64,000 nt of DNA from assembly GCA_964405295.1 (NCBI GenBank), contig CAYONI010000004.1, positions 20,698-84,697 on the forward strand, written 5' to 3'. Under the pieces are notes generated by a model. That model ran no database searches. It saw only the letters and a program-made list of their open reading frames with translations, and had not been told where the DNA came from. Below, in pieces: positions 2-47,466 of this stretch (positions are counted from its first letter, which is position 1; each line of letters begins with the position of its first letter). This DNA comes from an uncultured Methanosarcinales archaeon. Its GTDB lineage: Archaea; Nanobdellota; Nanobdellia; Woesearchaeales; CAYZNE01. A program made the position numbers and the translations under genes.

Positions 2-631
2 AAAATTTCTTACCTAGATGATAGTTATGTTTTAGAAGATACTTCTTCAAATCCTACAAAAGAAATTTATGCATCATATCTTGATTCAACTTACTTTGGT
101 TGGGAAGAAAGTTCAGAGCCATATAATTTTAGTATAACTATCTTTGATAGAGCAATGAATTCAATGGTAATTAATAAAAGTATTTTTGTAGATGATACTC
201 CCCCAGAGATTAATATTACCCATTTTAAGTCTGGTGGTATTTCTTTCCCTACAGGACAAAACCCTGAGAATTTATTTAGTAATATTACAACAAGAAACAC
301 TACATTATTTATTAACGGAACTGTTGATGACTCACTTATTAGAGATATTTGTTTAAATATGACTTTTAATGGAATAACTATAGATTTAATCAGTCCTTGT
401 CAAGAGCTTTGTGAAGGTGAAGAGGTTCCTCCTGGTTGTATTCAGAACGGAACTGGCAATTTCCAGTTTAGTTTTGCATTAACTCTTGATTCAAATCAAG
501 TTAATGAAGAAGAATTGTGGAATATAATCACGATCATTGCAACTGATGAAGCTTTTAATCAAGAGGTTAAATCTTTAGCTGCATTGATGGATTGGTTATC
601 ACCTTCTGTTGTAGATGCTGATGTTATATAG
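2..631 (+). CDS. C-terminal part of a large secreted Ig-like-repeat surface protein; the 5' end lies outside the window
   Basis: The frame of the listed 155..631 ORF stays open back to nt 2 (KISYLDDSYVLEDTSSNPTKEIY...), so the ATG at 155 is internal. The sequence is rich in N-x-S/T. The FDRAMNS and TDEAFNQ strands resemble the D-x-A-G-N strand of Big/SbsA-type Ig domains, which also occurs in the next gene. Confidence 0.6.
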   Translation, partial: KISYLDDSYVLEDTSSNPTKEIYASYLDSTYFGWEESSEPYNFSITIFDRAMNSMVINKSIFVDDTPPEINITHFKSGGISFPTGQNPENLFSNITTRNTTLFINGTVDDSLIRDICLNMTFNGITIDLISPCQELCEGEEVPPGCIQNGTGNFQFSFALTLDSNQVNEEELWNIITIIATDEAFNQEVKSLAALMDWLSPSVVDADVI

Positions 632-660
632 GTAGAGATTTATAGAAGAGAAATTTAAAG

Positions 661-3600
661 ATGAGTTTTAGATCAGAAAAAAGAGGTTTAGGTATTTTAA
701 AGAGTGCAATTTTCTTAAAGGTTGCTATATTGTTTCTTTTAATATCTATTCTTAGTTTTAATGTTCTTTCAACTGAGTACTATACTACTAGTGCAGCACC
801 AGTAATTAGTATACTTTTTGATGAACAAATAAATCTTGATTCAATAACTGCGCAGGTTCTTTGCTTAGAGAAACAGGGGATTTGCTTTGATATTTACCAA
901 TCAGGAAATGTTACACAAACTCCTCAGATAGATGTGGCGCTTGAGAATAATAATCTAACCGTTCTTTATTCTCTTGGTCTTATTCCGAATGATAATTATA
1001 CTTTCCATACAACTGTTGAAGACGTAGTTGGTAATTCTCAATCATACGATCTTAGTTTCACAGTTGATGCGCCTTTAATGGATATCTCTGTTGTTTTACC
1101 TAATAATGCTTGGTCAAATGAAATACCTTTTGATGTAGCAATTTCTCCTGAATATAATAATTCTAACTGTTGGTATTTCCCAGGAAATATTCAACGGCCT
1201 CTAACCCCTGATGAAGGTTATACTTTCAATTTCACAAATATTGTTGATGGTGCTCGGTGGTTTTATATTTATGATATAACAAACAATACTGTTACAGATA
1301 CTTATCAAGTAGGGCAAAGCTTGCCTTTTTATGTCGCATGTAATGCAGGTGATGAAAACTATGGTTGGGCAGATTTAACTGTTTATTGGGATACAACTGC
1401 ACCAATTTATTCACTTGAATTTGATCCAAGCCCTTTAACTGATCTTGTTAATCGTATTGTTGATGTAACTGTTACATCTTCTCCTTATGGAAATGGAGAA
1501 AGTGCTGATGAGATTGGTTGTGAAATTGCAATTCTAATTGATAATGGAGCTAATATAACTTCTCCTGTATTTATTCCTTTTGATAGTGTTGGTGGTGATA
1601 TTTCTAAGATTGGTAACTATTCTCAAATTAACACACATGAACTTAATTTTGAAAATATTCCTATAACTGATTTTACTTCACATAGTTATCAATATAAAAT
1701 ACGTTGTAGAAATAAAGCAGGAACATTAGGGGATAATATTACTGAGGATTTAACTGTTCAACTTTCACCAGATTTTTCAATAACCCAAATCAGTCCTGAT
1801 AACTATGTTAATTCTGCAACAATTCCTGTTGAAGTTTTAACAAGTGTTGAAACAATTTGGTGTAATATTTCAAAAGATGGCTTCAATGAGTTAATGTTAA
1901 TAAACACTTCAACTAATAAAAATCATTATTATTATTTATCAAGTGTTTCTGAGGGGTCACATAGTTATGATATAGATTGTAAATCAACTTTTGGTTCTAA
2001 TGATCACTCAAGCATCTCATTCACTGTGGATAGAGTCTCGCCTGATAATGTATCTATAAATACTAATGATTATAGTTGTTCTCTGGCAGAGTTAAGTTTT
2101 AAGTTACATGCAGATGATGATCTATCAGGTGTATCTTATTTCAATTATACTATTACTGGTCCAGAATCAGAATTGATTGCTTCAGATTTGACAAGTGATA
2201 CAACAATAGAATATGATTACACACTTATAGAAAATGAGTCCTATATAATTAAGGTTGTCGCTGTAGATCGAGCTGGAAATCCAAGTTCAAGTGTGACAAA
2301 AACAATTGTTGCAACTGGGCCGGATCTTGTTGAATGTGACACAGTTTCTCCGACAATCAATTTCATTGATGAAAAAGAGCCTGGTGTGACAGTTGTTAAT
2401 ATAACTTGTTCAGATTCTCAGTCTGGATGTAGAGATAGTTTTGATTATAGTCTATTAAATAATCTTAGTGCAGATTGTACTTACTTAACTGCAGGAAGCT
2501 GGTCTACAACAACACAATTTTCTATATGGGAAGATACTAAGTTCTGTATAAGAGCTAAAGATTATAATGATAATGAAAGAGAAGATGATGAAATAATTAC
2601 GGTTACATTTAATGTTTCTACTCATTGTTCAAACGGGTTAATTGATTTTGATGAGTCAGATATAGATTGTGGGGGTACTGAATGTTTTGCTTGTGATGCT
2701 GGATCTGCTTGTTCAAGTGACGATGACTGTAGCACTAATTGGTGTAATAATGGTGTTTGTGATACTCCCGCTTGTGATGATACTATTTTAAATGGTCTTG
2801 AAACTGATGTTGATTGTGGTGGAAATTGTGATGGATGCGAAATTAATAAGACCTGTGTGTTAAATGATGATTGTTTAAGTTTTTGGTGTAATGAATCTGT
2901 TTGTGCAGCATCTTCTTGTGAAGATTATGTTGTCAATGGTCTTGAAACTGATGTTGATTGTGGTGGTCTTGAGTGTATGCCTTGTGATAATGGCCAGAAT
3001 TGTTTTGAAGATTTTGATTGTGTTTCTAATTATTGTAATTATGGTATTTGTGAAGAAATGATTCCTATTAATCCTATTGATGATGAAAAATTAAACATTA
3101 TCTCATTAATTCTTTTAATTTTGGGGATATTATTTATTCTTGTAGGTGTAGGTTATATTTTATATGAGCATTACTATCTTAAACCTAAAGAAACAACTAT
3201 TAGTACTGAAACGCATTTTGCACGTCCAGTTAAACATAAACTTTCTCCTGAAGAAATAAAAAGATTACATAAGAAAAGATTAATGATGAAAGAAAAGTTT
3301 AAGAAAAGGTCAAGTTCTATGAAAGATAAGTTTTCAACAAAGTTATCTACTTTTGATGAAGAAACTAAAGAAATAAAATCTGATAAAGATAAAGAGGAAT
3401 CAGAAAAAGCTAAGAAAGTTATGGAAAAGATTAGTAAGTTGTCTGATAAAGAAGTTACTCCTAAAGACAAGGAGTATGAAAAATTAGATAAAGGCTTAGA
3501 AGAAGATTATGTTGCGTTAGGAGATCTTAAAAAGAATGTTGTTGATAAACTTAAAGATGATCCTAAGTTTAATGATAAAGTTGCAGAGGATGTGTTTGCT

Positions 3601-4107
3601 GCACTTGATAAAATGCAATTAGGTGTTGATAAAAAAACCAAGATAAAAGATGATTATAAAGAACGTGAAAATTCTGACAAAAATTATGTTACTGAAGAAG
3701 ATTTTAAGAAGTTAGATGAAGTTATAAAAAAATCTAAAGAAGAAAAAGGTAAATCTGGAAAAATAATTGAGTCTAACAAGAAAGAACAACTTGTCTCTGT
3801 TCAGGATAAAGAAGATGTGTTTTCTGCTCTTGATGATCTTGCCTCAGGGTCTAAAGCTAAAAATAAGTCAGAGAAGGTTGATTTTTCTGCAAGAAAATTA
3901 TTTAATTCTGATGACTTAGTTAATTTATTTAAGAAAAAAGAGTTAAGTGCAGACGTTTTTAAAGTTATACTTTCTGAGTTATTAAATTCAGGCAAATTAA
4001 CAAAGGCTGATGTTTCTGGAATAGTATTTAGATTATTAGAACAAGATCTTCTTGAAAAAGATATTGCACATAAAATTTTAAAAGATTTAAAGTTAATAAA
4101 AGAATAA
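661..4107 (+). CDS. Giant type I membrane surface protein: Ig-like repeats, three Cys-rich modules, one TM helix and a long charged cytoplasmic tail
   Basis: 1148-aa ORF. The N-terminus is a basic stretch plus a hydrophobic helix (EKRGLGILKSAIFLKVAILFLLISILSF). About 640 aa follow that are beta-rich and sequon-rich, with recurring D-x-x-G-N strands (VEDVVGNSQ, AVDRAGNPS). Three Cys-rich modules lie at 2626-3051 and a TM helix (LNIISLILLILGILFILVGVGYILY) at about 3094-3165. The last ~310 aa form a K/E/D-rich tail. Confidence 0.85.
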   Translation: MSFRSEKRGLGILKSAIFLKVAILFLLISILSFNVLSTEYYTTSAAPVISILFDEQINLDSITAQVLCLEKQGICFDIYQSGNVTQTPQIDVALENNNLTVLYSLGLIPNDNYTFHTTVEDVVGNSQSYDLSFTVDAPLMDISVVLPNNAWSNEIPFDVAISPEYNNSNCWYFPGNIQRPLTPDEGYTFNFTNIVDGARWFYIYDITNNTVTDTYQVGQSLPFYVACNAGDENYGWADLTVYWDTTAPIYSLEFDPSPLTDLVNRIVDVTVTSSPYGNGESADEIGCEIAILIDNGANITSPVFIPFDSVGGDISKIGNYSQINTHELNFENIPITDFTSHSYQYKIRCRNKAGTLGDNITEDLTVQLSPDFSITQISPDNYVNSATIPVEVLTSVETIWCNISKDGFNELMLINTSTNKNHYYYLSSVSEGSHSYDIDCKSTFGSNDHSSISFTVDRVSPDNVSINTNDYSCSLAELSFKLHADDDLSGVSYFNYTITGPESELIASDLTSDTTIEYDYTLIENESYIIKVVAVDRAGNPSSSVTKTIVATGPDLVECDTVSPTINFIDEKEPGVTVVNITCSDSQSGCRDSFDYSLLNNLSADCTYLTAGSWSTTTQFSIWEDTKFCIRAKDYNDNEREDDEIITVTFNVSTHCSNGLIDFDESDIDCGGTECFACDAGSACSSDDDCSTNWCNNGVCDTPACDDTILNGLETDVDCGGNCDGCEINKTCVLNDDCLSFWCNESVCAASSCEDYVVNGLETDVDCGGLECMPCDNGQNCFEDFDCVSNYCNYGICEEMIPINPIDDEKLNIISLILLILGILFILVGVGYILYEHYYLKPKETTISTETHFARPVKHKLSPEEIKRLHKKRLMMKEKFKKRSSSMKDKFSTKLSTFDEETKEIKSDKDKEESEKAKKVMEKISKLSDKEVTPKDKEYEKLDKGLEEDYVALGDLKKNVVDKLKDDPKFNDKVAEDVFAALDKMQLGVDKKTKIKDDYKERENSDKNYVTEEDFKKLDEVIKKSKEEKGKSGKIIESNKKEQLVSVQDKEDVFSALDDLASGSKAKNKSEKVDFSARKLFNSDDLVNLFKKKELSADVFKVILSELLNSGKLTKADVSGIVFRLLEQDLLEKDIAHKILKDLKLIKE
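2626..3051 (+). repeat. Three tandem ~48-aa cysteine-rich modules (consensus C-x5-NG-x-ETDVDCGG-x2-C-x2-C-x5-C-x5-C-x4-C-x4-C) inside the 1148-aa gene
   Basis: The modules start at 2626, 2773 and 2917. An exact 32-nt repeat aatggtcttgaaactgatgttgattgtggtgg occurs at 2791-2822 and 2935-2966, a 144-nt period. Confidence 0.9.
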
Positions 4108-4108
4108 A

Positions 4109-4624
4109 ATGAATCGTAAAGCTGCAGTAAAACAAGTATTCACATTTTTAATGGTCGCAATATTAATAGGTTTAGTGTTTTTATTCGGTATAAAAGCTAT
4201 TGCAGGAATCATGAAAGATACTTGTGATGCAGATGTTGCTCTTTTCACAAAGCAAATTAATGAATTTGTTAATAAATATAATACTTATGGTTCAGATAGA
4301 GAAGAAAGAGTTATTCTTCCATGTGAACATTCTTTTGTGTGTTTTATTGATAAGGATATTATTGGTACACCAACAACGATTTTTCCAAATCCTGATATAG
4401 TAATTAATCCTATGATTGAACAGAGTATTCTTGCTAATGTTAGTTATAATATTTTTCTAATAAAAAATAATATCGCAACTCCTATTGGTTATTCAGATAA
4501 GTTAGTAGTAGGTGAGCCTTATAATTATCTTTGTATGCAACCAACAGGTAATAAGGTTGTAATAAGATTTGTTGGTAAGGGAAGAACAACAGAAGTAAAT
4601 TTGCCTCAATTAGGAGTGGTTTAA
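4109..4624 (+). CDS. Small helix-anchored protein, possible type IV pilin-like subunit (family not recognised)
   Basis: 171 aa. It starts 1 nt after the stop of the 1148-aa gene. The N-terminus MNRKAAVKQVFTFLMVAILIGLVFLFGI is a basic stretch followed by one hydrophobic helix. The globular part contains Cys. Confidence 0.45.
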   Translation: MNRKAAVKQVFTFLMVAILIGLVFLFGIKAIAGIMKDTCDADVALFTKQINEFVNKYNTYGSDREERVILPCEHSFVCFIDKDIIGTPTTIFPNPDIVINPMIEQSILANVSYNIFLIKNNIATPIGYSDKLVVGEPYNYLCMQPTGNKVVIRFVGKGRTTEVNLPQLGVV

Positions 4625-5641
4625 TTGTTTTTTCAAAAAAGAGCATTTACTATACAATTTAGTTGGATATTTATTTTAATAGTGGGATTTATGGTAATGC
4701 TTTTTGTTATAACTTCTATAAGTAAGCAGGGAGAGGTTTCAACATCAGATGTTAATGTTGAGATTCTACAAAATGTTGATTCAATTATTAGTACTTCTTG
4801 GCAAAGTGTTAACACTTTTAAAATTGTAAACACACCTAAAATAACTATTGAGTATATATGTGAAGATAATTATTCTGCCTATTCTGTTAATTCTAAGTTG
4901 CGTAGAGTAGATGATCTCATAATTTTTGCACCAAAACAAATTGACGGAAAAAAGATTTTTACATGGTCAAAAGAATATAAGATGCCAATGAAAATTGTTA
5001 ATGTTCTTTACTTAACTAATGAAAAACACAAATATATTTTTGTTAATTCTTCCACTAATAATGTAATGAGATTTTTATCTTCTAATTTTCCAGAAAATAT
5101 GACTTTTGAAACAGTTAATCCAGGATTTGATTTAGAAGATGGAAATTTTGATATGTATACAATTATTTCTACAGACGAAGATTATAATGGTGCTGGTGTT
5201 CCTGCATCTATCAGGAAAAAAACAAAAGTGGTGATAATAAATACTTCATCAGGAAATTATCAGAATGGTAATGTAAGTTTTTATTCTTTTAACAATGAAG
5301 GGCTTTTGGAGTTTGACGGAGAAGGTGTTTATCTTGATGAATCAACACTTTATGGTGCGATTTTTAGTAGTGGAATTTCTGATTATGAATGTACTATAGA
5401 TAAGTTAATGAGAAAGTCAAAGAATTTATATCAAATTTATCATAATGTTGCTGAAAAAGAACGAGATGCTTCTTCAAAAGCAATATGTATTTCAGCTTAT
5501 TATCCTGCGGTCATTGATATGCTAGTATACCTTAATGACTCAATTGATGCAAGGAATTATGAAGAGATTGTAATGGCAGGTTACAGTTTGGATGGTTCAA
5601 ATAAAAATCTAAGGAAATATGGGTGCCCTTTAATTTATTAA
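4625..5641 (+). CDS. Helix-anchored protein, possible pilin-like subunit (family not recognised)
   Basis: 338 aa. A TTG start lies directly after the TAA of the previous gene, with AGGAGTG about 7 nt upstream. The N-terminus is FFQKRAFTIQFSWIFILIVGFMVMLFVI. Confidence 0.45.
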   Translation: MFFQKRAFTIQFSWIFILIVGFMVMLFVITSISKQGEVSTSDVNVEILQNVDSIISTSWQSVNTFKIVNTPKITIEYICEDNYSAYSVNSKLRRVDDLIIFAPKQIDGKKIFTWSKEYKMPMKIVNVLYLTNEKHKYIFVNSSTNNVMRFLSSNFPENMTFETVNPGFDLEDGNFDMYTIISTDEDYNGAGVPASIRKKTKVVIINTSSGNYQNGNVSFYSFNNEGLLEFDGEGVYLDESTLYGAIFSSGISDYECTIDKLMRKSKNLYQIYHNVAEKERDASSKAICISAYYPAVIDMLVYLNDSIDARNYEEIVMAGYSLDGSNKNLRKYGCPLIY

Positions 5642-5642
5642 A

Positions 5643-6155
5643 ATGATTTCAATAAAAAGGTTTAGAAGGAAAGCGCAATTGCAAATGACTGAAAACATTG
5701 CAATAATTATGATAATTGTATTTATTCTAATATTTGGTTTTGTGTTTTATAGTAAGGTTCGTTCTGCATCTATTAAGGGTAAACTAAAAGAGTATTCTGA
5801 ACTTGATTTAGTTAAAGCTTCACAAACAATTTCCTCTTTGCCTGAGTTATCTTGTTCTCGAGAATCTTTAACAGATGTTGGCTGTATAAATAAGTTGAAG
5901 CTAGAAGCATTCATAGAGTTGGGTTTACAAGAGGAATATTATGAATATTACCGAGAGTTATTTGGTAAATCTAAAGTAACATTTAATTCAACGTTCCCTG
6001 ATGATACAATTAATATTGAATTATACAATAACCCTTTTGATGGTATTAATAATAAAGATTCAATTTTTATTCCTATAAATATTTTTGATCCAATAAATGA
6101 TACTGTTAATTTTGGTTATGTTCAAATAACTAAGTATACACAACCTTTAATTTAA
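5643..6155 (+). CDS. Small helix-anchored protein, possible pilin-like subunit (family not recognised)
   Basis: 170 aa, with a 1-nt gap to the previous gene. The N-terminus MISIKRFRRKAQLQMTENIAIIMIIVFILIFGFVFY has K-A-Q followed by an acidic residue and a hydrophobic helix. Confidence 0.45.
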   Translation: MISIKRFRRKAQLQMTENIAIIMIIVFILIFGFVFYSKVRSASIKGKLKEYSELDLVKASQTISSLPELSCSRESLTDVGCINKLKLEAFIELGLQEEYYEYYRELFGKSKVTFNSTFPDDTINIELYNNPFDGINNKDSIFIPINIFDPINDTVNFGYVQITKYTQPLI

Positions 6156-6156
6156 A

Positions 6157-6672
6157 ATGGCAGATAAAAAAAAATCTAAGTTTGGGCAAGTAGAAATAAT
6201 GGGTTTATTAATAGTTGTAATATTAGTTGTTGTGGTAATTTTTTTAGTTGTTAGTTTTAGTGCTAAAACTCCTCCAAGAAATATTCAAACAACATATATG
6301 AATGATCAAATGTCAACTGCATTTATTCTTGCTTTGCTTGATACGAGCACTGAGTGCGGTAATTCTGTAAGTATATCTGAAGTTATAGCTGATTGTGCTG
6401 CGTTTGACAGAATAAAGTGTCCTGGTGGTAATTCTTGCACTTATTTAAACGAATCCTTAGATGATATGTTTAACTCAACCCTAGTAGAGTGGGGTGTAGG
6501 ATTTGTATTTACCATGCATCATATATCCTTTGATAATCCTGGGCTAAATAATTTTACTTTTTCTCAGGGTTGTGGTTATGGATCGATTGCTCAGAGAGAA
6601 ACTTTTCAGATTATTCCTTTATGGCCTAGACCTGATGATGTTAAAGTTAGAATAAAGATCTGTGATAGTTAG
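6157..6672 (+). CDS. Small helix-anchored protein, possible pilin-like subunit (family not recognised)
   Basis: 171 aa, with a 1-nt gap to the previous gene. The N-terminus MADKKKSKFGQVEIMGLLIVVILVVVVIFLVV has K-x-G-Q-x-E followed by a hydrophobic helix. The globular part contains Cys. Confidence 0.45.
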   Translation: MADKKKSKFGQVEIMGLLIVVILVVVVIFLVVSFSAKTPPRNIQTTYMNDQMSTAFILALLDTSTECGNSVSISEVIADCAAFDRIKCPGGNSCTYLNESLDDMFNSTLVEWGVGFVFTMHHISFDNPGLNNFTFSQGCGYGSIAQRETFQIIPLWPRPDDVKVRIKICDS

Positions 6673-18353: not shown

Positions 18354-18428
18354 TGGGGCGGCTGGCGGGAGTTGAACCCGCCCCTGAGGTTCCACAGACC
18401 TCAATGCTACCGATACACTACAGCCACC
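18354..18428 (-). tRNA. tRNA-His (anticodon GUG) with genome-encoded G-1 and 3' CCA
   Basis: I folded the cloverleaf by hand. G-1 pairs with C73. The acceptor stem is GTGGCTG/CAGCCGC and the D loop is ATCGGTA. The anticodon stem GAGGT/ACCTC carries the loop CTGTGGA. The variable loop has 4 nt. The T arm is GCGGG-TTCAACT-CCCGC and the 3' end is CCCA. Confidence 0.9.
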
Positions 18429-36457: not shown

Positions 36458-38767
36458 GTGAGCATGGTTAATTCAAGTTTTGGTAAGTGTTATTATTCAG
36501 TTGATAAAGAAGGGGAATCTGTAGTTCTTAGTGTAGATTGTGATTCTTACCTAAAAGTCCCAAGTTTAGAAGATGATCCTGTTCTTATGTCTCATACTTG
36601 TGATCAATTAATAAAAAATAAGAATGTTTCAAAAATAAGGTTTTCTCAGAAAAGAGATTATGAATATGGTTACGAAGAAACAAAACTTCTCAAAGAAATA
36701 GCTTTTTTTTATAATGATCTAAGTAGAAAGCCAGAGCTTTTTGCAATACAGTCGTATGAAGGAAGGTCTCATCTTGCGTCTGTTAGTAGGTGGTTGATTG
36801 AAATAAAGAATGTTGTTATAGTTCAATTAAAATCTGATCCTATAGGGGCTTTTGTTCACTTAAAGCATATGCACAGAGATATGAAAATTGCTAATGATAA
36901 AGCATTGACCCTTGATGAAAGAAATGAGATTGAGAGAGTTATGCTTTTTGTTGAATCGCTAATTTCTCAGTTAGAGCAGTTGCAATTAATTAAAATAGTT
37001 AAAGATGGGCTTGCAGGTCATGAGCCTGGTGATAGATCCATTTACAAGAAAGTTTTCAATCCTATAATTAAACCAGATTTTATGTTTAGTAAGTTAATGG
37101 CTCTTTACCCAAAGAATTCTGTAGAAAAAGCAAATTATAGTATTGGTGATAATGAGGTTGTTCTTTTTGATATTCCTGATAGTGTTCAACCAATGTACCA
37201 TGTTCTTCCGCCTGAATTTAAACTAAATGAAGAAGAGTATGAAATTTTGGATTTGGCAAGAAAAATAATGTCAGAGCATAAGCCTAAAGAGCAAGAATTT
37301 GTTGACCCAGAGAGAATGCGAGAAGTGTTTTTTAATGTTGGTCATGATCTTATACTTGATTTAGCAAATTACAAGAATATAACCCTAAATAAAGCACAAG
37401 CAAGAGATTTAACAAAAATACTTGTAAGATATACTGTAGGTTTTGGATTAATAGAAGTTTTATTAGAAGATCCAAAAGTTCAAGATGTTGCAATAAATGC
37501 GCCATATGGTAGTGGGCCTATATACCTTGTTCATGAAGATTTTGATGAATGTATAACAAATATTATCCCTACAGAAGCTGATGCAGAATCTTGGGCTTCA
37601 AAACTTAGAATGATTTCCGGGAGAAGTTTGGATGAGGCAAATCCTATTTTAGATACTGAAATATTAATTCCTGGTGTTGCTAATGCAAGAGTGTCTGTTG
37701 TTACACAGCCACTTTCCCCTGTTGGTCTTTCATATTCTTTCAGAAGACAAAGAGATAAGCCTTGGACAATTCCACTATTTATTAAAAATAGAATGCTTTC
37801 TCCTCTTGCAGCAGGGTTATTAAGTTTCTTTATCGATGGTAATAGAACAATATTGGTTGCAGGAACAAGAGGTTCTGGTAAAACTTCTTTTTTAGGAAGT
37901 GTACTAATAGAAATTATGAGAAAGTTTAGGATAATAACTGTTGAAGATACTTTAGAATTACCAACTCCTGCACTCAGAAGATTGGGGTATGATGTTGTTG
38001 CGCTTCAGGTTGCTGCTGCATTATCCAGAGACAGCACAGAATTTACTGCAACAGAAGGTATAAGGTCAACTCTAAGACTTGGAGATTCTGCACTATTTGT
38101 TGGGGAAGTTAGAAGCAAAGAGGCTGTTGCTCTTTTTGAAGCAATGAGAGTTGGTGCAGGTGCAAATGTGGTTGGTGGAACTTTTCACGCGGATAGTGCT
38201 TTTGGTATTTATGATCGATGTGTAAACGCAATTGGAATTGCAAATAACTCTTTTAAGGCTTTGGATCTTGCAGTAATTGTAAATCCTATTAAGAGTGCAG
38301 ATGGTCTTCATAGATGGAGAAGGGTAACTTCTATTACTGAAGTAAGAAAAGATTGGAAATCTGATCCTCTATTGGAACATGGTTTTGTTGATTTAATGAA
38401 GTATTCAACTGAAACAGATATGCTTGAACCAACTGACGCACTTATTAATGGAGATTGCCAGCTTATAAAAAATATTGCAGGTAATATTAAAGAATGGGCT
38501 GGTGATTGGGATGCAGTTTGGGAAAATATTCAGTTAAGAGCAGATACAAAAGAATATCTTGTTAAAATTTCTATTGATAATAATCTTCCAGGATTATTAG
38601 AAGCAGAGTTTGTTATTCTTGCAAATGATGAATTTCATAAAACCATTAATGATGTTAAAAAACTTGGTAAAGATATTGATTCTGGTAGAATCTTAACAGT
38701 TTGGAAACTTTGGCTTGATAAAGAAGTTCATAAGATTAAAATGTTAAAAGATAGTGAGAATATTTAA
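36458..38767 (+). CDS. Type II/IV secretion-family ATPase (archaeal FlaI/PilB-like) with long terminal extensions
   Basis: Motifs seen are Walker A GTRGSGKTS, Asp box IITVEDTLEL, Walker B LFVGEVRSKEA and His box GGTFHADSA. The protein is 769 aa. Confidence 0.85.
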   Translation: MSMVNSSFGKCYYSVDKEGESVVLSVDCDSYLKVPSLEDDPVLMSHTCDQLIKNKNVSKIRFSQKRDYEYGYEETKLLKEIAFFYNDLSRKPELFAIQSYEGRSHLASVSRWLIEIKNVVIVQLKSDPIGAFVHLKHMHRDMKIANDKALTLDERNEIERVMLFVESLISQLEQLQLIKIVKDGLAGHEPGDRSIYKKVFNPIIKPDFMFSKLMALYPKNSVEKANYSIGDNEVVLFDIPDSVQPMYHVLPPEFKLNEEEYEILDLARKIMSEHKPKEQEFVDPERMREVFFNVGHDLILDLANYKNITLNKAQARDLTKILVRYTVGFGLIEVLLEDPKVQDVAINAPYGSGPIYLVHEDFDECITNIIPTEADAESWASKLRMISGRSLDEANPILDTEILIPGVANARVSVVTQPLSPVGLSYSFRRQRDKPWTIPLFIKNRMLSPLAAGLLSFFIDGNRTILVAGTRGSGKTSFLGSVLIEIMRKFRIITVEDTLELPTPALRRLGYDVVALQVAAALSRDSTEFTATEGIRSTLRLGDSALFVGEVRSKEAVALFEAMRVGAGANVVGGTFHADSAFGIYDRCVNAIGIANNSFKALDLAVIVNPIKSADGLHRWRRVTSITEVRKDWKSDPLLEHGFVDLMKYSTETDMLEPTDALINGDCQLIKNIAGNIKEWAGDWDAVWENIQLRADTKEYLVKISIDNNLPGLLEAEFVILANDEFHKTINDVKKLGKDIDSGRILTVWKLWLDKEVHKIKMLKDSENI

Positions 38768-38787
38768 TTCTTACATAGAGGTGTAGC

Positions 38788-41028
38788 TTGTCAAAAGATA
38801 TTGATAAAAAACTTTATGAGAAATTCAGGGTTAAAGTTGAGAATGAATTAAAAAAAGATTTTGATACTGAAGGGGAAGAGTTAAAGCCAATTACTTCTAG
38901 GCAATATGATCGATTTAGAGAATCTTTTCTTCCAAAGAATCTTTCTTATTATGAAAAAGCTTGTGATTTTTCAGAAAAGGTTTTTAAAATCTCTCCAGAT
39001 CCTAAAAAAGCAGAAAAGATTCAAGAGGATCTTGATGCTTGTCATCTTAATTGTACTCCTACAGGTGTTGCAAGTTTTGCAATCCTTGGGCCAATGATTT
39101 TTATTATTATCTCATCAATAATTGGTTATTTATTTCCTTTTATTGTTGATGGTTCAACTGAAGGAAGTATGTTTTTTTTAGTATTCTCAGTTATTGTTGG
39201 AATGATATTAATAATACCATTAAATAAGTATCCAAATTTTCTTGCAACAACTTGGAGAATGAAAGCTAGTAATCAGATGGTTTTATCAATTTTTTATGTT
39301 GCTACTTTTATGAGGCATAGTTCTAACTTAGAGCTTGCAATTGATTTTGCAGCCGAGCATCTTAATCCCCCATTATCTTTAGATTTAAAAAAAGTTATTT
39401 GGGATGTTGAAACACAAAAGTATTCTTCAATAAAAGAATCTCTTGATTATTATCTTGAAAAATGGAAGAATTATAATAGAGAATATATTGAGGCAATGCA
39501 TTTAATAGAATCAAGTCTATATGAATCTTCAGAATCACGAAGAGTTAATGCTCTTGATAAATCTTTAGAGGTTATACTTGAAGAGACTGAAGAGAAAATG
39601 ATGCACTTTGCTCATAATCTAAAAACTCCTCTTGATACACTCAATATGTTGGGTATTGTTTTGCCTGTTCTTGGTCTTGTTATTTTGCCTTTAATGGTTA
39701 GTTTTATGCCTGAAGTAAAATGGTATCATATTGCTGCAGTTTACAATATTGCTTTACCTGCTTCAGTTTATTTTCTTGGTAAAAGTATTCTTGCAACAAG
39801 GCCGTCTGGGTATGGTCATGTTGATCTTACGACTTCTAAGAATTATAAGAAATATACTAATATTATAATTAAGGTTGGTAGTAAAGAACTTAAATTGAGC
39901 CCGTTATATATTTCTATAGCTGTATTTTCTGTGCTTTTTTTTATAGGAATATTTCCTTTACTTCTTCATGCTATTGCACCTGATTTTGATCTAGTTATAA
40001 TGTCTCCTGATGGTACCAACTCTGTTCTAACGACCTTGTATAATGTTGATGACCCTAAAACAATCCAGCATTCATTTCTTGGTTATAGGTTTAATGAAGA
40101 TAAAACAAGGAAGATAGGTCCTTTTGGTTTAGGGGCCACCCTGATATCCTTATTTATTCCTCTAGCATTTGGGTTGGCATTAGGTTTATATTATAAATTT
40201 AGATCTGCTAATGTTATTAAAATAAGAGAGAAAACACAGCAATTAGAGGATGAATTTGCATCAGCATTATTTCAGCTTGGAGGGCGTTTGGGTGATGGAC
40301 TCCCGCCAGAATTGGCTTTCGGTAAAGTTTCAGAGGTTATGCAGGGAACGGTAACTGGAAAGTTTTTCTCACTTGTTTCTTTAAATATCCGTAAACTTGG
40401 TATGTCTGTTGAACAAGCAATATTTGATAAGAAAAAGGGTGCAATAAATTTCTTCCCTTCAAATCTTATTGAAACTTCTATGAAGATTCTTATTGAGTCG
40501 TCTAAAAAGGGTTCTATGATTGCTAGTCAAGCACTAATTAATGTATCAACTTATGTAAAGCAGATGCATAGGGTTGATGAAAGATTAAAAGACTTAATGG
40601 TTGACGTTGTTTCAAGTATGAATGCTCAAATTAAGTTTTTAACGCCTGTTATTGCGGGAGTGGTTATAGGGATTACCAGCATGATTACAACCATTCTTGG
40701 ATCTTTAACAATACAGATGGAGGCACTAACAGGGGTTGGAACAGATGCAACTGCAGGGGGATTCCAAGCTGCAGGATTATTATCTATGTTTAGTGCAGGT
40801 GTGCCAACATATTTTTTTCAAGTTATTGTTGGTTTGTATGTTGTGCAGATAGTGATTATACTTACAATTATTAGTAATGGTATTATTAATGGGACAGATA
40901 AATTAAATGAGAAATTTCTTCTTGGTAAAAACCTTATTAGTAGTCCTTTGTTATACTGTTTTATTGGAGGGGTAGTCATATTAATATTTAATCTGATTGC
41001 GGGATCCATATTAATTGGTTTGATTTAG
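38788..41028 (+). CDS. Polytopic membrane protein at the FlaJ/TadC/PilC platform position
   Basis: 746 aa. TTG start with AGAGGTG 4 nt upstream and a 20-nt gap after the ATPase gene. There are several TM clusters separated by soluble helical regions. The platform assignment rests on synteny and topology, not on a motif. Confidence 0.55.
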   Translation: MSKDIDKKLYEKFRVKVENELKKDFDTEGEELKPITSRQYDRFRESFLPKNLSYYEKACDFSEKVFKISPDPKKAEKIQEDLDACHLNCTPTGVASFAILGPMIFIIISSIIGYLFPFIVDGSTEGSMFFLVFSVIVGMILIIPLNKYPNFLATTWRMKASNQMVLSIFYVATFMRHSSNLELAIDFAAEHLNPPLSLDLKKVIWDVETQKYSSIKESLDYYLEKWKNYNREYIEAMHLIESSLYESSESRRVNALDKSLEVILEETEEKMMHFAHNLKTPLDTLNMLGIVLPVLGLVILPLMVSFMPEVKWYHIAAVYNIALPASVYFLGKSILATRPSGYGHVDLTTSKNYKKYTNIIIKVGSKELKLSPLYISIAVFSVLFFIGIFPLLLHAIAPDFDLVIMSPDGTNSVLTTLYNVDDPKTIQHSFLGYRFNEDKTRKIGPFGLGATLISLFIPLAFGLALGLYYKFRSANVIKIREKTQQLEDEFASALFQLGGRLGDGLPPELAFGKVSEVMQGTVTGKFFSLVSLNIRKLGMSVEQAIFDKKKGAINFFPSNLIETSMKILIESSKKGSMIASQALINVSTYVKQMHRVDERLKDLMVDVVSSMNAQIKFLTPVIAGVVIGITSMITTILGSLTIQMEALTGVGTDATAGGFQAAGLLSMFSAGVPTYFFQVIVGLYVVQIVIILTIISNGIINGTDKLNEKFLLGKNLISSPLLYCFIGGVVILIFNLIAGSILIGLI

Positions 41029-42993: not shown

Positions 42994-45900
42994 TTATAAT
43001 GTTCTTATGTTTTTTATGGCTTCTCTAATATCACTATCATTCCATCCTGCTTTAATTAGGTTATTCATTATATCCTTATCAGTTAGATTGTTTTCTATCG
43101 CTTTGGCAACATAATTCATAAGCTCAGCTTTTATTGATCCAGGTGTTTTGGTAGTATTAGTAACATTACTTGTTGCTGTTGATATTTCAATAGGATCTTC
43201 CTGTTGTCTATGATGTTTCTTTTTATGCTGGCTATAGAACACAGCAATTCCAACAGTTATAATAATTACCACCACTACTAATATATAGAAGTTAGTTGTT
43301 ATTATTTCATTAGGGTCTAGGATTTCATTTTCTCCATTTGAGGAGTTAAAATAACTGTTCCCTATTTTGTAAACAACCATCTCTGTACTTGTTGAACTAA
43401 TATTATTGACTGTTGCAATTATGTCTGGTATATTATCACCGTCAATGTCTATTGCTTGAGGTTGTCCTTCAAATAATTGAATTTCTTTTGGATCTGATCT
43501 TATTACAAGAATTGCATAATTGTTTTCTGCGCCTTCACTATACCTTATTTCTTGTAATGTGATTGTGTGTTCTTCTAATACTTCTTCATTTGCTACCATT
43601 TTAGTAATTTCAAATGTTATTTGTTTTGTGAAATTAATTGATTCATTAATTATTTTTGAAGTTACTTCTGGTTCTTCATCTGTGTTTGTGTTATCGTCGC
43701 TTTGTTGATTGTCATTAGATGTATCATCGCCGTTATTGCTGAGGCTGTCATTATCATCATCTGTTGTGTTATAATCTTCTTCATCGTCACCATTGTTGTT
43801 ATTAGTATTTCCTCCTGGACTCCCACTGGGTGATGATTTACAATCTTCATTACAACTACTTGTGCTTTCTCCAGAGTCACAAGTTCCATCTCCACAATAT
43901 GATCCAAAAGTAGTTGAATTTATACATAATGCATTACAATAAGTTGTATTTAATCCATAACCTACACTAGGTGCAATTCCATTTTGATCTCCATCATCGC
44001 ATTCTTCTCCTAGATCTATCTCGGTAATATTGTTTCCACAATTAGGATTATTTATTTCTTCTGTGCAGACACTTGGTTCATACTTGCAAGTCCATCCAAC
44101 TTCTGTTAAGCAATCCATTGAACATCCATCGCTATTTATTATGTTGTTATCATCGCATTCTTCATCCTCATCAATTATTCCATCACCACAAACAATTGTT
44201 GTTTCATTGCTTGTTCCATTATTATATGTTGGTGAACCACTATTGTTAAAATAATTTTCACATGCAGTTGTTATGAGAATATCTTGAATAGTATTATCAT
44301 AAAAGGTTGAATCAAGAATAGTGTTTTCGCAACCATCAATTACTATTCCATTTTTATTATTATATACTTCTGCATTAGTGATTTGATTGTTTTTGGAGAA
44401 TTCGTTTATTACTACTCCTGTTTCTTCGTTGTCGAAAATTCTTAAATTACTAAAATTGTTATTATCTGATGAACGTAGTCTATTCCCTATTGGGGTAAGC
44501 CCCATTAATTTAAGCCCTGTTCGACTATTCTGAACTGTTAAGTTTGTAACTTGATTATAAATTGAGTCTGAAATATGCATACCATAACCACTATTATTAA
44601 CAATGACGTTCTGAAAGTTGTTAAGTCTTGACTCTTTGCTTATAATACCTACATATTTACAATTATCAAGTTTTAAGTTTGTAAATGTGTTTAAAGATCC
44701 TAGTAATTCTATTCCTTTTCCTCCTAGGTTCTCTCCCTGTCTAAGATCCCTAAGATGTATGTTTATGTTATTAACATAATTATTTGAAAAAACTAAGGTT
44801 CTATCTGCTGTTTGATAACCAAGCAGCATTCCATTTTGTACATCACTTATATTTATGTTCTCAAGTGTGCTCGATTTACTTTCTCCTATTTTTAACCCTA
44901 AGAAAAACCCAGATATATCACAATTTTTAATAACTGAATCAGTCAAACTTGTAAATTTAAATCCTGAAGTAAAAAAAGACTCTGTTGTAACAAATATTTT
45001 ATGATTTTGGCAGTCTATTATTTTATTATCTACATCTGATTTTGAAATACAATCATATGTTCCTTCTGTAACTTCCAAATCATTTGTTATTCTTATTTCA
45101 GTACATTCAGAATCATCAAGTGCGTTATTACATCCATAGCAAGTGTCACATTCACAAATATTTCCGTTTATAGTATAATTATCTCCTCCTGCGTTAGGAA
45201 TAAATAATTGGTTGTTGCTTAGATAAACTTCATCATAAGTATTGCAAGTCTGAGGCATTCTTTGTGAAAAGAGTATATCTGTGTTACTATTATCTCGAAA
45301 AACAGAGTTGGTAATTGTGTTGTTGCAGGAAGAAATAGATATTCCATATCTGTTATTATATGAATTAATATTTGTTAAAATATTATTGTTTTTACTTGCA
45401 AGAGTTATTCCAGATATCCCACTATCATTAGGCTGGTCATTGTTATAAATTTCTGCACCATCTATTATGATATTTGATGCATATTCAGTAATAAGAAGCC
45501 CTGTGCTTCGCGTATCATGCACAGCGATATCATAGAACTCACAACTTTCACATTCATGAATATAAAATCCTATGTTGGAAGTTTTATTAACAACAATGTT
45601 TTCTAAAATGTTATCTTCTCCTCTAATAAAAATCCCCCTTTCGTGAGAGTCAAACACTTTTGCATTTGCAAGATAGTTTGAATTTCCTTCTAGAAATATG
45701 GCTGAGTAAATGAATCCTCCTGGCCCAATATCATTAGTAGCTATGTTTGTAATATTTGTATTATCAACATATTGTATTGTGATCCCATCATTTAAAGAGT
45801 CAGTTACATTAATGTTATCTACTTTGCAATTATCAGATGAAGCAAGTAGAAACCCTGATTTAAATTTATGGAATTTACAATTTTGGATAGTAAAATTTTC

Positions 45901-47259
45901 TTTAAATCTAATCCACATGCCTTTTTCACAAACAGTTGGTCTCTCACAAGTTATTGTGTGTCCTTGGCAATCAATTACTTTTCCTGAATCTTCTTTCCAA
46001 GAAGATATGCATGAACTTCTAGCACTTGGATTATGGCTAAAATCTTCTGTCATTAGTATGCTTGCGCATTCATCACTATCAAGTGCATCATCACATCCTT
46101 GGCAGGTATTGCATTCGCATACATCCCCATTTATTGTATAGGTTCCTGGTTCGCTTTGGGGAATAAATAATTGGTTGTTGCTCACATAAACTTCATTATA
46201 ATTATTACAAGTTTCGAGTATTCCTTCTGAGGATAGTATGTCTTGTTCACTACTATCATAATAGTTGGAATTATTAAGATTATTGTCACAAGCTCCCAAA
46301 TGAATCCCATATCTATTGTTATAGGAATCAATATTTATTAGTGTGTGGCCAGAGCTATCAACTTTTATACCTGCAACTTCGCTGTTTGGTGCATAATCAT
46401 TATTATAAATTTCTGCAGTATCTACTAAGACTCCTGGAGGGGCATATTCGCTAAGATGAATACCAAAGTTTTTGGTGTTGTGTATTACTGAATCATAAAA
46501 CTCACATCCTCCACAATCATTTATTACTAAACCTACCCTTTCCACATCATAAATTGTTAATCTGTTAAAAACATGATTAATTCCTTCTACCTCTACACCA
46601 TTTTTACTTGTGTCAAAAACTGTTAAATCGTTTATTGTGTTTGTATCACCTGTAATATCCACAGATCCTCCTGCATTCATAGCGTTCATTTGGTGTTCAA
46701 CTGTTAAATTATTTACTTCGTTGTTTGAACCACTTAGTGTAAAAGAATCAATTTGGGGATTATAAACATAAATATTATTTATTTCACAATTAGTAGAATC
46801 TGCAATTTCAAATCCGTACAAAGAAGTTTCCATTCTGCAATTTTGAACAGTAAAGTTATTCTTATTTTCTAAATACATACTCCATTGACAATTGTCTGTT
46901 GCATCACAAAAGATTTTATTGCCTTGACAATCAATTATTTTATCAGAATCTGAATTTTCAGACCTGATACAGGAATTTTCAAATTCACCTTGTATGTCTT
47001 CGGTTATTAGAATAGTTGCGCATTCATCGCTATCGATTGCATTGTTACAGTCAGAGCAAGTGTTACAAGTACAGATTCCATTCTCTCCAAGTTCATAGGC
47101 TTTCCCACCTACATTTGGAGTTTCACCTTTGCTAAATAAGGATCCAATCCATTCGAATAAGTTAAATTTCTCGCTTTGTTCAGTTGTTTCTTCTGCAACA
47201 ACTACTGAACTAAGAAGTATTATTATTAACAGAATTGATATGAGCATTTTTTTATTCAT
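42994..47259 (-). CDS. Giant type I membrane surface protein: three tandem right-handed beta-helix (PbH1/NosD-like) modules, Cys-rich repeats, an N/D-rich spacer, a TM helix and a short cytoplasmic tail
   Basis: 1421 aa. The signal peptide is MNKKMLISILLIIILLSSVVVA. Each of the three modules opens with C-x-C-x-T-C-x2-C-x2-A-[IL]-D-x2-E-C and contains PbH1-like turns (NNRYGIHL, NNRYGISI). CGDGIIDEDEECDDNNIINSDGCSMDC is a DUF4215/myxococcal-type Cys repeat. The TM helix is FYILVVVVIIITVGIAVFY. Confidence 0.9.
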   Translation of the reverse strand: MNKKMLISILLIIILLSSVVVAEETTEQSEKFNLFEWIGSLFSKGETPNVGGKAYELGENGICTCNTCSDCNNAIDSDECATILITEDIQGEFENSCIRSENSDSDKIIDCQGNKIFCDATDNCQWSMYLENKNNFTVQNCRMETSLYGFEIADSTNCEINNIYVYNPQIDSFTLSGSNNEVNNLTVEHQMNAMNAGGSVDITGDTNTINDLTVFDTSKNGVEVEGINHVFNRLTIYDVERVGLVINDCGGCEFYDSVIHNTKNFGIHLSEYAPPGVLVDTAEIYNNDYAPNSEVAGIKVDSSGHTLINIDSYNNRYGIHLGACDNNLNNSNYYDSSEQDILSSEGILETCNNYNEVYVSNNQLFIPQSEPGTYTINGDVCECNTCQGCDDALDSDECASILMTEDFSHNPSARSSCISSWKEDSGKVIDCQGHTITCERPTVCEKGMWIRFKENFTIQNCKFHKFKSGFLLASSDNCKVDNINVTDSLNDGITIQYVDNTNITNIATNDIGPGGFIYSAIFLEGNSNYLANAKVFDSHERGIFIRGEDNILENIVVNKTSNIGFYIHECESCEFYDIAVHDTRSTGLLITEYASNIIIDGAEIYNNDQPNDSGISGITLASKNNNILTNINSYNNRYGISISSCNNTITNSVFRDNSNTDILFSQRMPQTCNTYDEVYLSNNQLFIPNAGGDNYTINGNICECDTCYGCNNALDDSECTEIRITNDLEVTEGTYDCISKSDVDNKIIDCQNHKIFVTTESFFTSGFKFTSLTDSVIKNCDISGFFLGLKIGESKSSTLENINISDVQNGMLLGYQTADRTLVFSNNYVNNINIHLRDLRQGENLGGKGIELLGSLNTFTNLKLDNCKYVGIISKESRLNNFQNVIVNNSGYGMHISDSIYNQVTNLTVQNSRTGLKLMGLTPIGNRLRSSDNNNFSNLRIFDNEETGVVINEFSKNNQITNAEVYNNKNGIVIDGCENTILDSTFYDNTIQDILITTACENYFNNSGSPTYNNGTSNETTIVCGDGIIDEDEECDDNNIINSDGCSMDCLTEVGWTCKYEPSVCTEEINNPNCGNNITEIDLGEECDDGDQNGIAPSVGYGLNTTYCNALCINSTTFGSYCGDGTCDSGESTSSCNEDCKSSPSGSPGGNTNNNNGDDEEDYNTTDDDNDSLSNNGDDTSNDNQQSDDNTNTDEEPEVTSKIINESINFTKQITFEITKMVANEEVLEEHTITLQEIRYSEGAENNYAILVIRSDPKEIQLFEGQPQAIDIDGDNIPDIIATVNNISSTSTEMVVYKIGNSYFNSSNGENEILDPNEIITTNFYILVVVVIIITVGIAVFYSQHKKKHHRQQEDPIEISTATSNVTNTTKTPGSIKAELMNYVAKAIENNLTDKDIMNNLIKAGWNDSDIREAIKNIRTL
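44245..47097 (-). repeat. Three tandem, diverged ~960-nt (319-321 aa) coding repeats (46141-47097, 45178-46140, 44245-45177)
   Basis: Module starts are YELGENGICTC (aa 55), YTINGDVCEC (aa 374) and YTINGNICEC (aa 695). The exact 22-mer gaataaataattggttgttgct occurs at 46161-46182 and 45198-45219, a 963-nt spacing. Confidence 0.9.
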
Positions 47260-47466
47260 TTTATAAACTCCTGATTTTTTGTATTTATAATAGTAAATAC
47301 TAATATCCTAGTAGTAATCCTTTATAAGTATTTTTGCTTTTATTTAGATAATTGCTGTTGCCTTAAGGTTAGATTATTAGATTTGTGCTTTTAGTACTTT
47401 GTTGGGGGTTGCGTACTGTGGACCAACAGCATCATCAAATAATAATATAATTTCAGTGAAAGGCAA

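Follow-up and report, generated by a model that had tools for sequence, protein, structure and literature searches.

A surface protein with three cysteine-capped beta-helix modules in a DPANN-like archaeon, and an orthologue without the module block

Architecture of the surface protein

The subject of this report is the gene of a large surface protein on the minus strand of a 64-kb stretch of archaeal DNA (contig CAYONI010000004.1; the whole stretch of 64,000 nt is referred to as the window, and coordinates are those of the window unless another contig is named). The open reading frame (ORF; 42994-47259) has an ATG start and encodes 1421 aa, 3.8% of them Cys and 13% Asn; the window contains one other large Cys-rich ORF. 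A preliminary description had portrayed the product as a surface protein made of tandem modules, Cys-rich repeats, an N/D-rich spacer and a transmembrane anchor, a layout borne out by the ORF, by Pfam and NCBIfam matches and by hydrophobicity. In the direction of transcription the features are:

47320..47345, minus strand: conserved upstream block AAATAAAAGCAAAAATACTTATAAAG containing a TATA-like TTATAAA; putative archaeal promoter
47268..47272, minus strand: ribosome-binding site AGGAG, 8 nt before the ATG, recognised from the sequence
47188..47259, minus strand: signal peptide region MNKKMLISILLIIILLSSVVVAEE (aa 1-24), assigned by hydrophobicity
47098..47187, minus strand: N-terminal linker (aa 25-54); no domain match, missing from the 346-aa orthologue described below
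46141..47097, minus strand: beta-helix module 1 (M1) with Cys cap (aa 55-373); Pfam Beta_helix 1.7e-10, full-length match to the module profile
45178..46140, minus strand: beta-helix module 2 (M2) with Cys cap (aa 374-694); Pfam Beta_helix 7.1e-20, NosD 9.9e-15; AlphaFold2 model and Foldseek matches of beta-helix type
44230..45177, minus strand: beta-helix module 3 (M3; aa 695-1010), the most diverged and without the inter-module linker motif; Beta_helix 8.1e-19, NosD 3.1e-10
43837..44229, minus strand: Cys-rich acidic repeats (aa 1011-1141), two canonical CG[DN][GN]...EECDD and one short CGDGTCDSGESTSSCNEDC
43660..43836, minus strand: N/D/T/S-rich acidic low-complexity spacer (aa 1142-1200), delimited by sequence; length differs in the orthologue
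43312..43659, minus strand: membrane-proximal beta-rich domain (aa 1201-1316), conserved in the orthologue
43225..43311, minus strand: transmembrane helix followed by KKKHHR (aa 1317-1345), assigned by hydrophobicity; nearly identical in the orthologue
42997..43224, minus strand: cytoplasmic tail of 76 aa (aa 1346-1421), conserved in the orthologue

The upstream block, which may serve as an archaeal promoter, is identical over 26 nt in one orthologous locus (L047) and over 25 nt in another (L056, in GCA_053986505.1), the remaining upstream region being unalignable. Topology and signal peptide were read from hydrophobicity at the sequence level. The hydrophobic segments are aa 1-26 and aa 1317-1345, the latter followed by KKKHHR, and because an N-terminal signal-like segment, likely cleaved after VVA, is combined with a C-terminal transmembrane helix and a basic stretch behind it, a type I single-pass topology is supported, with the modules displayed at the end of a stalk. 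This agrees with the earlier proposal of display far from the membrane. The transmembrane helix had also been recognised correctly; the tail, put at 80 aa, is slightly shorter.

As for the stalk, two or three DUF4215-type repeats had been claimed, and the two canonical copies and the short one bear this out. The Cys-rich segment matches TIGR02232 in two stretches (47.7 bits, 9.5e-13; cut-off 20.8 bits), and aa 1011-1141 scanned alone also pass DUF4215 (PF13948) in two stretches (32.5 bits, 1.1e-07; cut-off 27 bits), whereas the whole-protein scan stays under that cut-off at 22.4 bits. Repeats of this type (TIGR02232 myxo_disulf_rpt or DUF4215) are also found in the central region of pappalysin-1 (PAPP-A), residues 865-910 of which align with aa 1023-1066 (E=1e-06); here they would act as the stalk element of an archaeal membrane protein. 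Neither the beta-rich domain (aa 1201-1316) nor the tail has a significant match in Pfam, a PDB sequence search or PHROGs, and weak TPR-like and designed-protein matches of the C-terminal region (E 0.0015-0.4) were dismissed as compositional. Pfam and NCBIfam scans of the protein returned no S-layer family. The last ~45 aa of the tail are predicted by AlphaFold2 to form a three-helix bundle, with a predicted local distance difference test score (pLDDT) of 76-86 there. Heavy N-glycosylation was considered as a special feature and rejected, the 30 N-X-S/T sequons matching the 31.6 expected from composition.

Neither the tail motif nor the anchor domains occur in any other ORF of the window or in any of the 150 best relatives of the modules, and a scan of viral contigs found no anchor. 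A metagenome scan for the anchor, the patterns of which fell in the Cys repeat, returned only DUF4215-type proteins of ~300 aa that carry neither anchor nor modules. Five JGI loci (L048-L052: Ga0222637, Ga0268282, Ga0265595, Ga0265596 and Ga0075122) encode ORFs of ~290-310 aa in which only the DUF4215-like repeats are related, to aa 1074-1140; beta-helix modules and a matching anchor are both missing from these ORFs.

Three tandem beta-helix modules

The three tandem modules of ~320 aa given in the preliminary description are present (aa 55-373, 374-694 and 695-1010) and align over their full length. Pairwise amino-acid identity over that length is 41% for M1/M2, 30% for M1/M3 and 34% for M2/M3, and codon-aligned nucleotide identity is 57%, 49% and 52%, respectively; judged from these values, the modules are old duplicates. 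Pfam Beta_helix (PF13229; gathering score 25.9 bits) is passed by the whole protein (133.2 bits) and by each module (M1 41.2, M2 71.7 and M3 68.2 bits), and NosD (PF05048; gathering score 23.6 bits) likewise by the whole protein and by all three modules (M2 55.0, M3 40.3 and, marginally, M1 23.8 bits). A repeat finder returned DNA repeat families spaced 963 and 954 nt. The exact 22-mer reported earlier does lie at 45198 and 46161, 963 nt apart, and the longest exact repeat between modules is 22-23 nt.

The positions invariant among M1, M2 and M3 are Cys, Asn, Gly, Ile and a few Asp near the caps. YNNRYGI-type turns are found in M1 and M2 as had been described, and M3 has YNNKNGI in their place. 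The segment VY[VL]SNNQLFIP had been taken as the end of every module; it is found only after M1 and M2, the end of M3 being different, and is therefore better regarded as an inter-module linker. Across the module end and linker, M1 and M2 are 79% identical at the nucleotide level (45197-45294 versus 46160-46257) compared with 57% for the modules overall, a difference that linker selection or an old conversion tract might explain. The cap at the start of each module, previously described with five Cys, has eight that are conserved in the family, and includes a CxCxxCxxC motif.

A three-copy structure could in principle arise in assembly, an explanation in favour of which nothing was found and to which we give practically no weight. 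The exact protein is found on eight contigs, and the DNA of the gene is identical to the window in JGI 3300031657 and in Logan assemblies SRR8862235 and SRR8862237, which come from different runs, with one flank mismatch in 22.2 kb; the identical gene in three assemblies argues that the structure is not an artefact. Moreover, copies that are only 49-57% identical in nucleotide sequence, and that share no exact repeat beyond ~22 nt, cannot be collapsed or expanded by an assembler.

For structure prediction, AlphaFold2 was supplied with 29 aligned modules, the three from the window protein and 26 family segments. The model of M2 has a mean pLDDT of 90.6 and a predicted template modelling score (pTM) of 0.89, with a single N-terminal helix followed by short strands at a period of ~22 residues, in keeping with the spacing of 21-23 residues between G[IFLVM]x[IFLVM] motifs in the modules; pLDDT falls below 50 at residues 312-321, the last ten residues, in the inter-module linker. 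Searched with Foldseek against the PDB, the model gave 112 matches at E<=1e-3, and those listed are right-handed beta-helices. They include the A-module of AlgE4 (TM-score 0.67-0.68), NosD (7osf; 0.65), AlgG, phage tailspikes and the adhesin PfbA (rank 20), all five at a probability of 1.00, together with fucoidan and alginate lyases and GH87 glucanases; identity is 9-14%. A viral structure library returned the same generic beta-helix matches. A right-handed beta-helix is thus supported as the module fold, as had been predicted, and the matches to the model single out no specific functional relative. Overall the preliminary description is confirmed almost in full: its account of the protein is accurate, its fold prediction correct and its functional inference reasonable, if unproven.

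A family of cysteine-capped modules

An exhaustive HMMER search with a profile of the three modules recovered 1784 proteins at E<=1e-3, of which 314 reach E<=1e-10 and 17 reach E<=1e-30. Many of these proteins are very large, up to 6816 aa, and are matched along numerous stretches. The 55 near-full-length external modules share the cap consensus C-x-C-x2-C-x2-C-x8-C...C-I...[FI]-D-C-Q-G...N-C, which lies outside every Pfam model matched by the window protein. In 58 full-length modules, positions conserved in at least 60% are the eight cap Cys, further cap residues including D57 (90%) and K54 (71%), and an Asn/Gly/Ile/Ser ladder along the coils. Beyond module position ~110, charged residues in the same 58 modules are all conserved in less than 40%.

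The 150 best relatives carry 0-5 strict cap motifs per protein; 103 of them have an N-terminal hydrophobic segment and 37 a C-terminal transmembrane helix. Only the window protein combines the module with the myxo-type Cys repeat in this set. A pattern scan of GTDB species representatives, built on a 9-sequence N-cap alignment, yielded 43 loci with 1-8 caps per ORF, many of the ORFs ending at the flank limit. Almost all are in metagenome-assembled genomes of Pacearchaeota, Aenigmatarchaeota, Altiarchaeota, Undinarchaeota, Micrarchaeota, Woesearchaeota, Huberarchaeum, Nanoarchaeia and Anstonellales, the outliers being one ANME-1 bin and one WOR-3 bin. With 1-8 caps per ORF across these lineages, multi-module arrays emerge as a common design in DPANN and Altiarchaeota. 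One locus, in Candidatus Altiarchaeales archaeon WOR_SM1_SCG (MCBE01000098.1, 1-6063), holds a truncated ORF of 2021 aa with eight Cys-cap motifs 170-270 aa apart, so spaced that its modules appear shorter and more numerous than those of the window protein.

Other searches were less productive. A word-index homology search with the whole protein found only the protein itself, its low-complexity words saturating the 8000 candidates, and with M2 alone it found nothing. The GTDB scan gave zero relatives when based on the three-module alignment, and the 29-sequence alignment was too diverse for search patterns.

An orthologue without the module block

A search with the C-terminal 226 aa returned a single cluster, the members of which (P0151, P0152 and P0153) come from three assemblies, one from ENA and two from NCBI, and are each 346 aa long; P0151 is 57% identical over 98% of the query. 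Its N-terminus is the signal peptide of the window protein, matched at 20 of 24 residues, after which the chain goes straight on to the residue equivalent to aa 1069. The missing part and its edges are:

44056..47187, minus strand: passenger block of 3132 nt (1044 residues, aa 25-1068) made up of the linker, the three modules and Cys repeat 1; absent from P0151, P0152 and P0153
47187..47195, minus strand: copy A of the direct repeat CAGAAGAAA, bounding the passenger block on its 5' side
44055..44063, minus strand: copy B of the direct repeat CAGAAGAAA, bounding the passenger block on its 3' side

Copies A and B of CAGAAGAA(A) are the only two in the gene and constitute a microhomology of 8-9 nt that lies outside the module repeats. 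Counting both strands, the 64-kb window has 11 occurrences of the 8-mer CAGAAGAA, so that chance is unlikely to have placed one at each junction (~1e-3 by rough estimate).

Gene order in GCA_053986505.1 is that of the window: thermosome, Bax1-I-like protein, T2SSE ATPase, 746-aa membrane protein, radical SAM protein, small protein, archease and surface gene. Between the two genomes the T2SSE ATPase is 93% identical, the 746-aa protein 91%, the radical SAM protein 82%, the Bax1-I-like protein 81%, archease 74% and the small protein 71%, and the shared part of the surface protein, at 59%, is the most diverged gene product of the syntenic block. Upstream of the surface-protein gene synteny stops, save for the 25-26-nt TTATAAA block, and the upstream neighbour is Nre in the window as against unrelated short ORFs in GCA_053986505.1. 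That genome also has, between the archease and small-protein genes (JBMXIL010000018.1, 2381-3156), an extra gene for a 210-aa S-adenosylmethionine-dependent methyltransferase and a 67-aa ORF.

These junctions are most simply read as the result of an in-frame, microhomology-mediated deletion by which the other lineage lost the whole payload; alternatively, the passenger block may have been inserted in the lineage of the window. Recombination between modules is unlikely, given nucleotide identities of 49-57% and a longest exact repeat of 22-23 nt. The preliminary description had proposed gain and loss of modules through their internal repeats. Variation in content among relatives is supported, both by the number of caps per protein (0-5 in the best relatives, 1-8 in the GTDB loci) and by the module-less orthologue, but the indel observed removes or adds the whole block at a microhomology outside the module repeats. 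Module content would therefore seem to vary by whole-block indel and not by recombination between modules. In our proposal the anchor is the conserved part and the module block a fast-evolving payload that can be dispensed with; retention of the anchor without its payload suggests that the anchor has a function of its own. A bolder version, in which the payload is exchangeable and is lost by deletion through CAGAAGAA(A), so that recognition of a partner or host can be switched on or off, perhaps with both states present in one population, and in which the eight-Cys cap is, separately, a previously undescribed capping or metal-binding element, strikes us as improbable.

Function of the modules

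We favour, at a probability of roughly 55%, a Sec-exported type I protein the beta-helix modules of which are non-catalytic binding or spacing units, carried as a dispensable payload and directed at glycans or glycoproteins of other cells or of particles. The signal peptide would direct Sec export and then be cleaved, the C-terminal transmembrane helix would anchor the chain with the three-helix tail in the cytoplasm, and the beta-rich domain, the acidic spacer and the disulfide-type Cys-rich repeats would form a stalk that carries at its tip three right-handed beta-helix modules on short flexible linkers. Each module, of ~ten coils, would measure ~5 nm at the rise of 4.8 Å per coil of general beta-helix geometry. 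The eight-Cys cap at its start most likely seals the helix core via disulfides, much as in leucine-rich-repeat ectodomains a short Cys cluster, the LRRNT, precedes and shields the first coil of the solenoid; the likeness is one of analogy only, since the fold class differs and there is no homology. Glycans or glycoproteins carried by partner cells or particles would be the most likely targets, unless the modules act as spacers.

Between a glycan-binding adhesin and a lyase, the alternatives named in the preliminary description, the sequence leans towards binding or spacing over catalysis. The case for binding is a negative one. A motif search found no DPHD or DPHE of mannuronan C5-epimerases, and indeed no DPH or DP[HY][DE], anywhere in the protein, and none of the GH28 (G/QDD, G/SHG, RIK) or PL1 (W[IV]DH) motifs inside the modules, GDD being present in the low-complexity spacer only. 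To this are added the lack of any conserved charged residue in the helix body of 58 family modules and the divergence of the three tandem copies to 30-41% identity. Several points weigh against this reading. The absence of known motifs is compatible with an active site particular to the lineage, and a lack of shared sequence motifs is common among beta-helix depolymerases; the top matches by TM-score are enzymes (AlgE4) and NosD; the number of Cys per module is odd in every case (M1 15, M2 15, M3 11), so that not all of them can be disulfide-bonded; and the AlphaFold2 model of the C-terminal region, made from a 2-sequence alignment, has a pLDDT of 38.6 and is usable in the last 45 residues only, which offers little for the fold of the stalk and beta-rich domain.

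The modules might instead be cell-tethered polysaccharide-active enzymes (lyases, hydrolases or epimerases) that degrade glycans of a host envelope or environmental polymers, and a degradative role has indeed been suggested for pectin-lyase-like proteins of Nanobdella (bioRxiv 10.1101/2023.10.27.564410). Alginate epimerases, fucoidan and alginate lyases, GH87 glucanases and phage depolymerases are among the top Foldseek matches, and M2 has a sub-threshold match to Pect-lyase_RHGA_epim. The resemblance to AlgE4, AlgG, the lyases and the tailspike depolymerases is, however, one of fold (TM-score up to 0.68) at an identity of 9-14%. The modules lack the DPHD, GH28 and PL1 motifs and any conserved groove residues; neither the three modules nor the 58 family modules keep a common acidic, basic or His residue in the helix body, and a catalytic domain seldom occurs as three diverged tandem copies. 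We consider an enzymatic role rather unlikely. A structural component of the envelope, an S-layer-like coat or spacer with no specific ligand, would account for a large, Asn-rich protein with 30 N-X-S/T sequons on a stalked membrane anchor, and beta-helix S-layer proteins exist in bacteria. Yet the sequon count is at its compositional expectation, and a related genome lacks the whole beta-helix block, which ill fits an essential lattice protein. A survey of DPANN phyla, moreover, predicts S-layer proteins of the MSTP-like beta-sandwich type and not beta-helices (bioRxiv 10.1101/2024.05.28.596244), which argues against a lattice protein here, and we regard this explanation as unlikely. Far less probable still is a NosD-type maturation factor handling metal or sulfur, or a metal cluster bound by the Cys caps. 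Every module has the Pfam NosD domain above cut-off, the NosD structure 7osf is matched at a TM-score of 0.65, and the CxCxxCxxC motif and odd Cys count could suit a metal site. PF05048, however, matches many generic beta-helix proteins, and the equivalog model TIGR04247 reaches 37.3 bits against a cut-off of 300. No nosZ, nosF, nosY or nosL was found among the neighbours scanned, which were part of the window ORFs (archease, radical SAM, Nre, T2SSE and thermosome), and three tandem copies on a surface stalk, each with an extra eight-Cys cap, set the protein apart from NosD, a periplasmic beta-helix of the NosDFY system for maturation of N2O reductase.

A binding role for the modules is in line with what has been proposed for related organisms. 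Pectin-lyase-fold proteins of Nanobdella have been assigned glycan binding or degradation (bioRxiv 10.1101/2023.10.27.564410), the same host-surface role has been proposed for those of Nanohaloarchaeum (bioRxiv 10.1101/2023.02.24.529834), and the elevated diversity of surface proteins in Nanoarchaeota fits such a role. Compared by description, the proteins of Nanobdella aerobiophila (MJ1_0451/0701/0776) and Ca. Nanohaloarchaeum antarcticus are likewise large, secreted or anchored, of parallel beta-helix fold and from small symbiotic archaea, but they have one beta-helix with Ig-like folds where the window protein has three Cys-capped helices, DUF4215 repeats and a distinct anchor. Surface-displayed adhesive beta-helices are also seen in PfbA of S. 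pneumoniae (4mr0) and in autotransporter passengers such as Fap2. These are anchored by an LPXTG motif or an outer-membrane barrel, in contrast to the single transmembrane helix and cytoplasmic tail described here, and have no sequence relationship to the window protein. Since the paper on the altiarchaeal hami contains no description of a beta-helix, NosD or cysteines, a link to hami is not claimed.

Genomic context

The window has a GC content of ~30% throughout and encodes, besides the genes mentioned, an XPD-like helicase and ProRS. Its archaeal signal recognition particle (SRP) RNA (RF01857; 55814-56085, plus strand) scores 96.9 bits against a gathering score of 96.5, and its sole tRNA is tRNA-His GTG (18354-18427, minus strand). 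The SRP RNA and the archease, Nre and thermosome neighbours identify the host as an archaeon, of low GC and, it would seem, a small genome, and the module relatives point to a DPANN-like one.

The surface-protein gene converges with archease and is preceded by an upstream region of its own. Genes for a T2SSE-family ATPase (769 aa) and a 746-aa protein with eight transmembrane segments follow in the downstream direction at a distance of three genes (36458-41028, plus strand) and likely encode the ATPase and platform pair of a type IV pilus or secretion system; the identity of this pair in GCA_053986505.1 is far above that of the surface protein three genes away. Near the start of the window (155-6672, plus strand) is the gene of a Cys-rich protein of 1148 aa (661-4107), which has weak Ig-like Big_5/Big_13 matches and hydrophobic segments both at the N-terminus and internally. 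Behind it come four ORFs of 170-338 aa, all with a basic N-terminus and one hydrophobic helix, and the set looks like a type IV pilin-like gene cluster.

Implications

Surface proteins of this beta-helix kind are common in DPANN-like archaea, and their fold class, proposed role and rapid evolution are already in the literature, so that the gain made here is modest. What is new is the module-less orthologue, in which the whole block is absent from a conserved anchor. A dependence on physical contact with other cells is assumed for DPANN archaea, and few of the molecules that establish such contact are known. The window protein provides a clean, fully assembled example of a module family concentrated in DPANN and Altiarchaeota genomes, and the presence and absence of the payload in a pair of related genomes constitute a natural experiment on the function of the beta-helix payload and on how fast the surface repertoire turns over.

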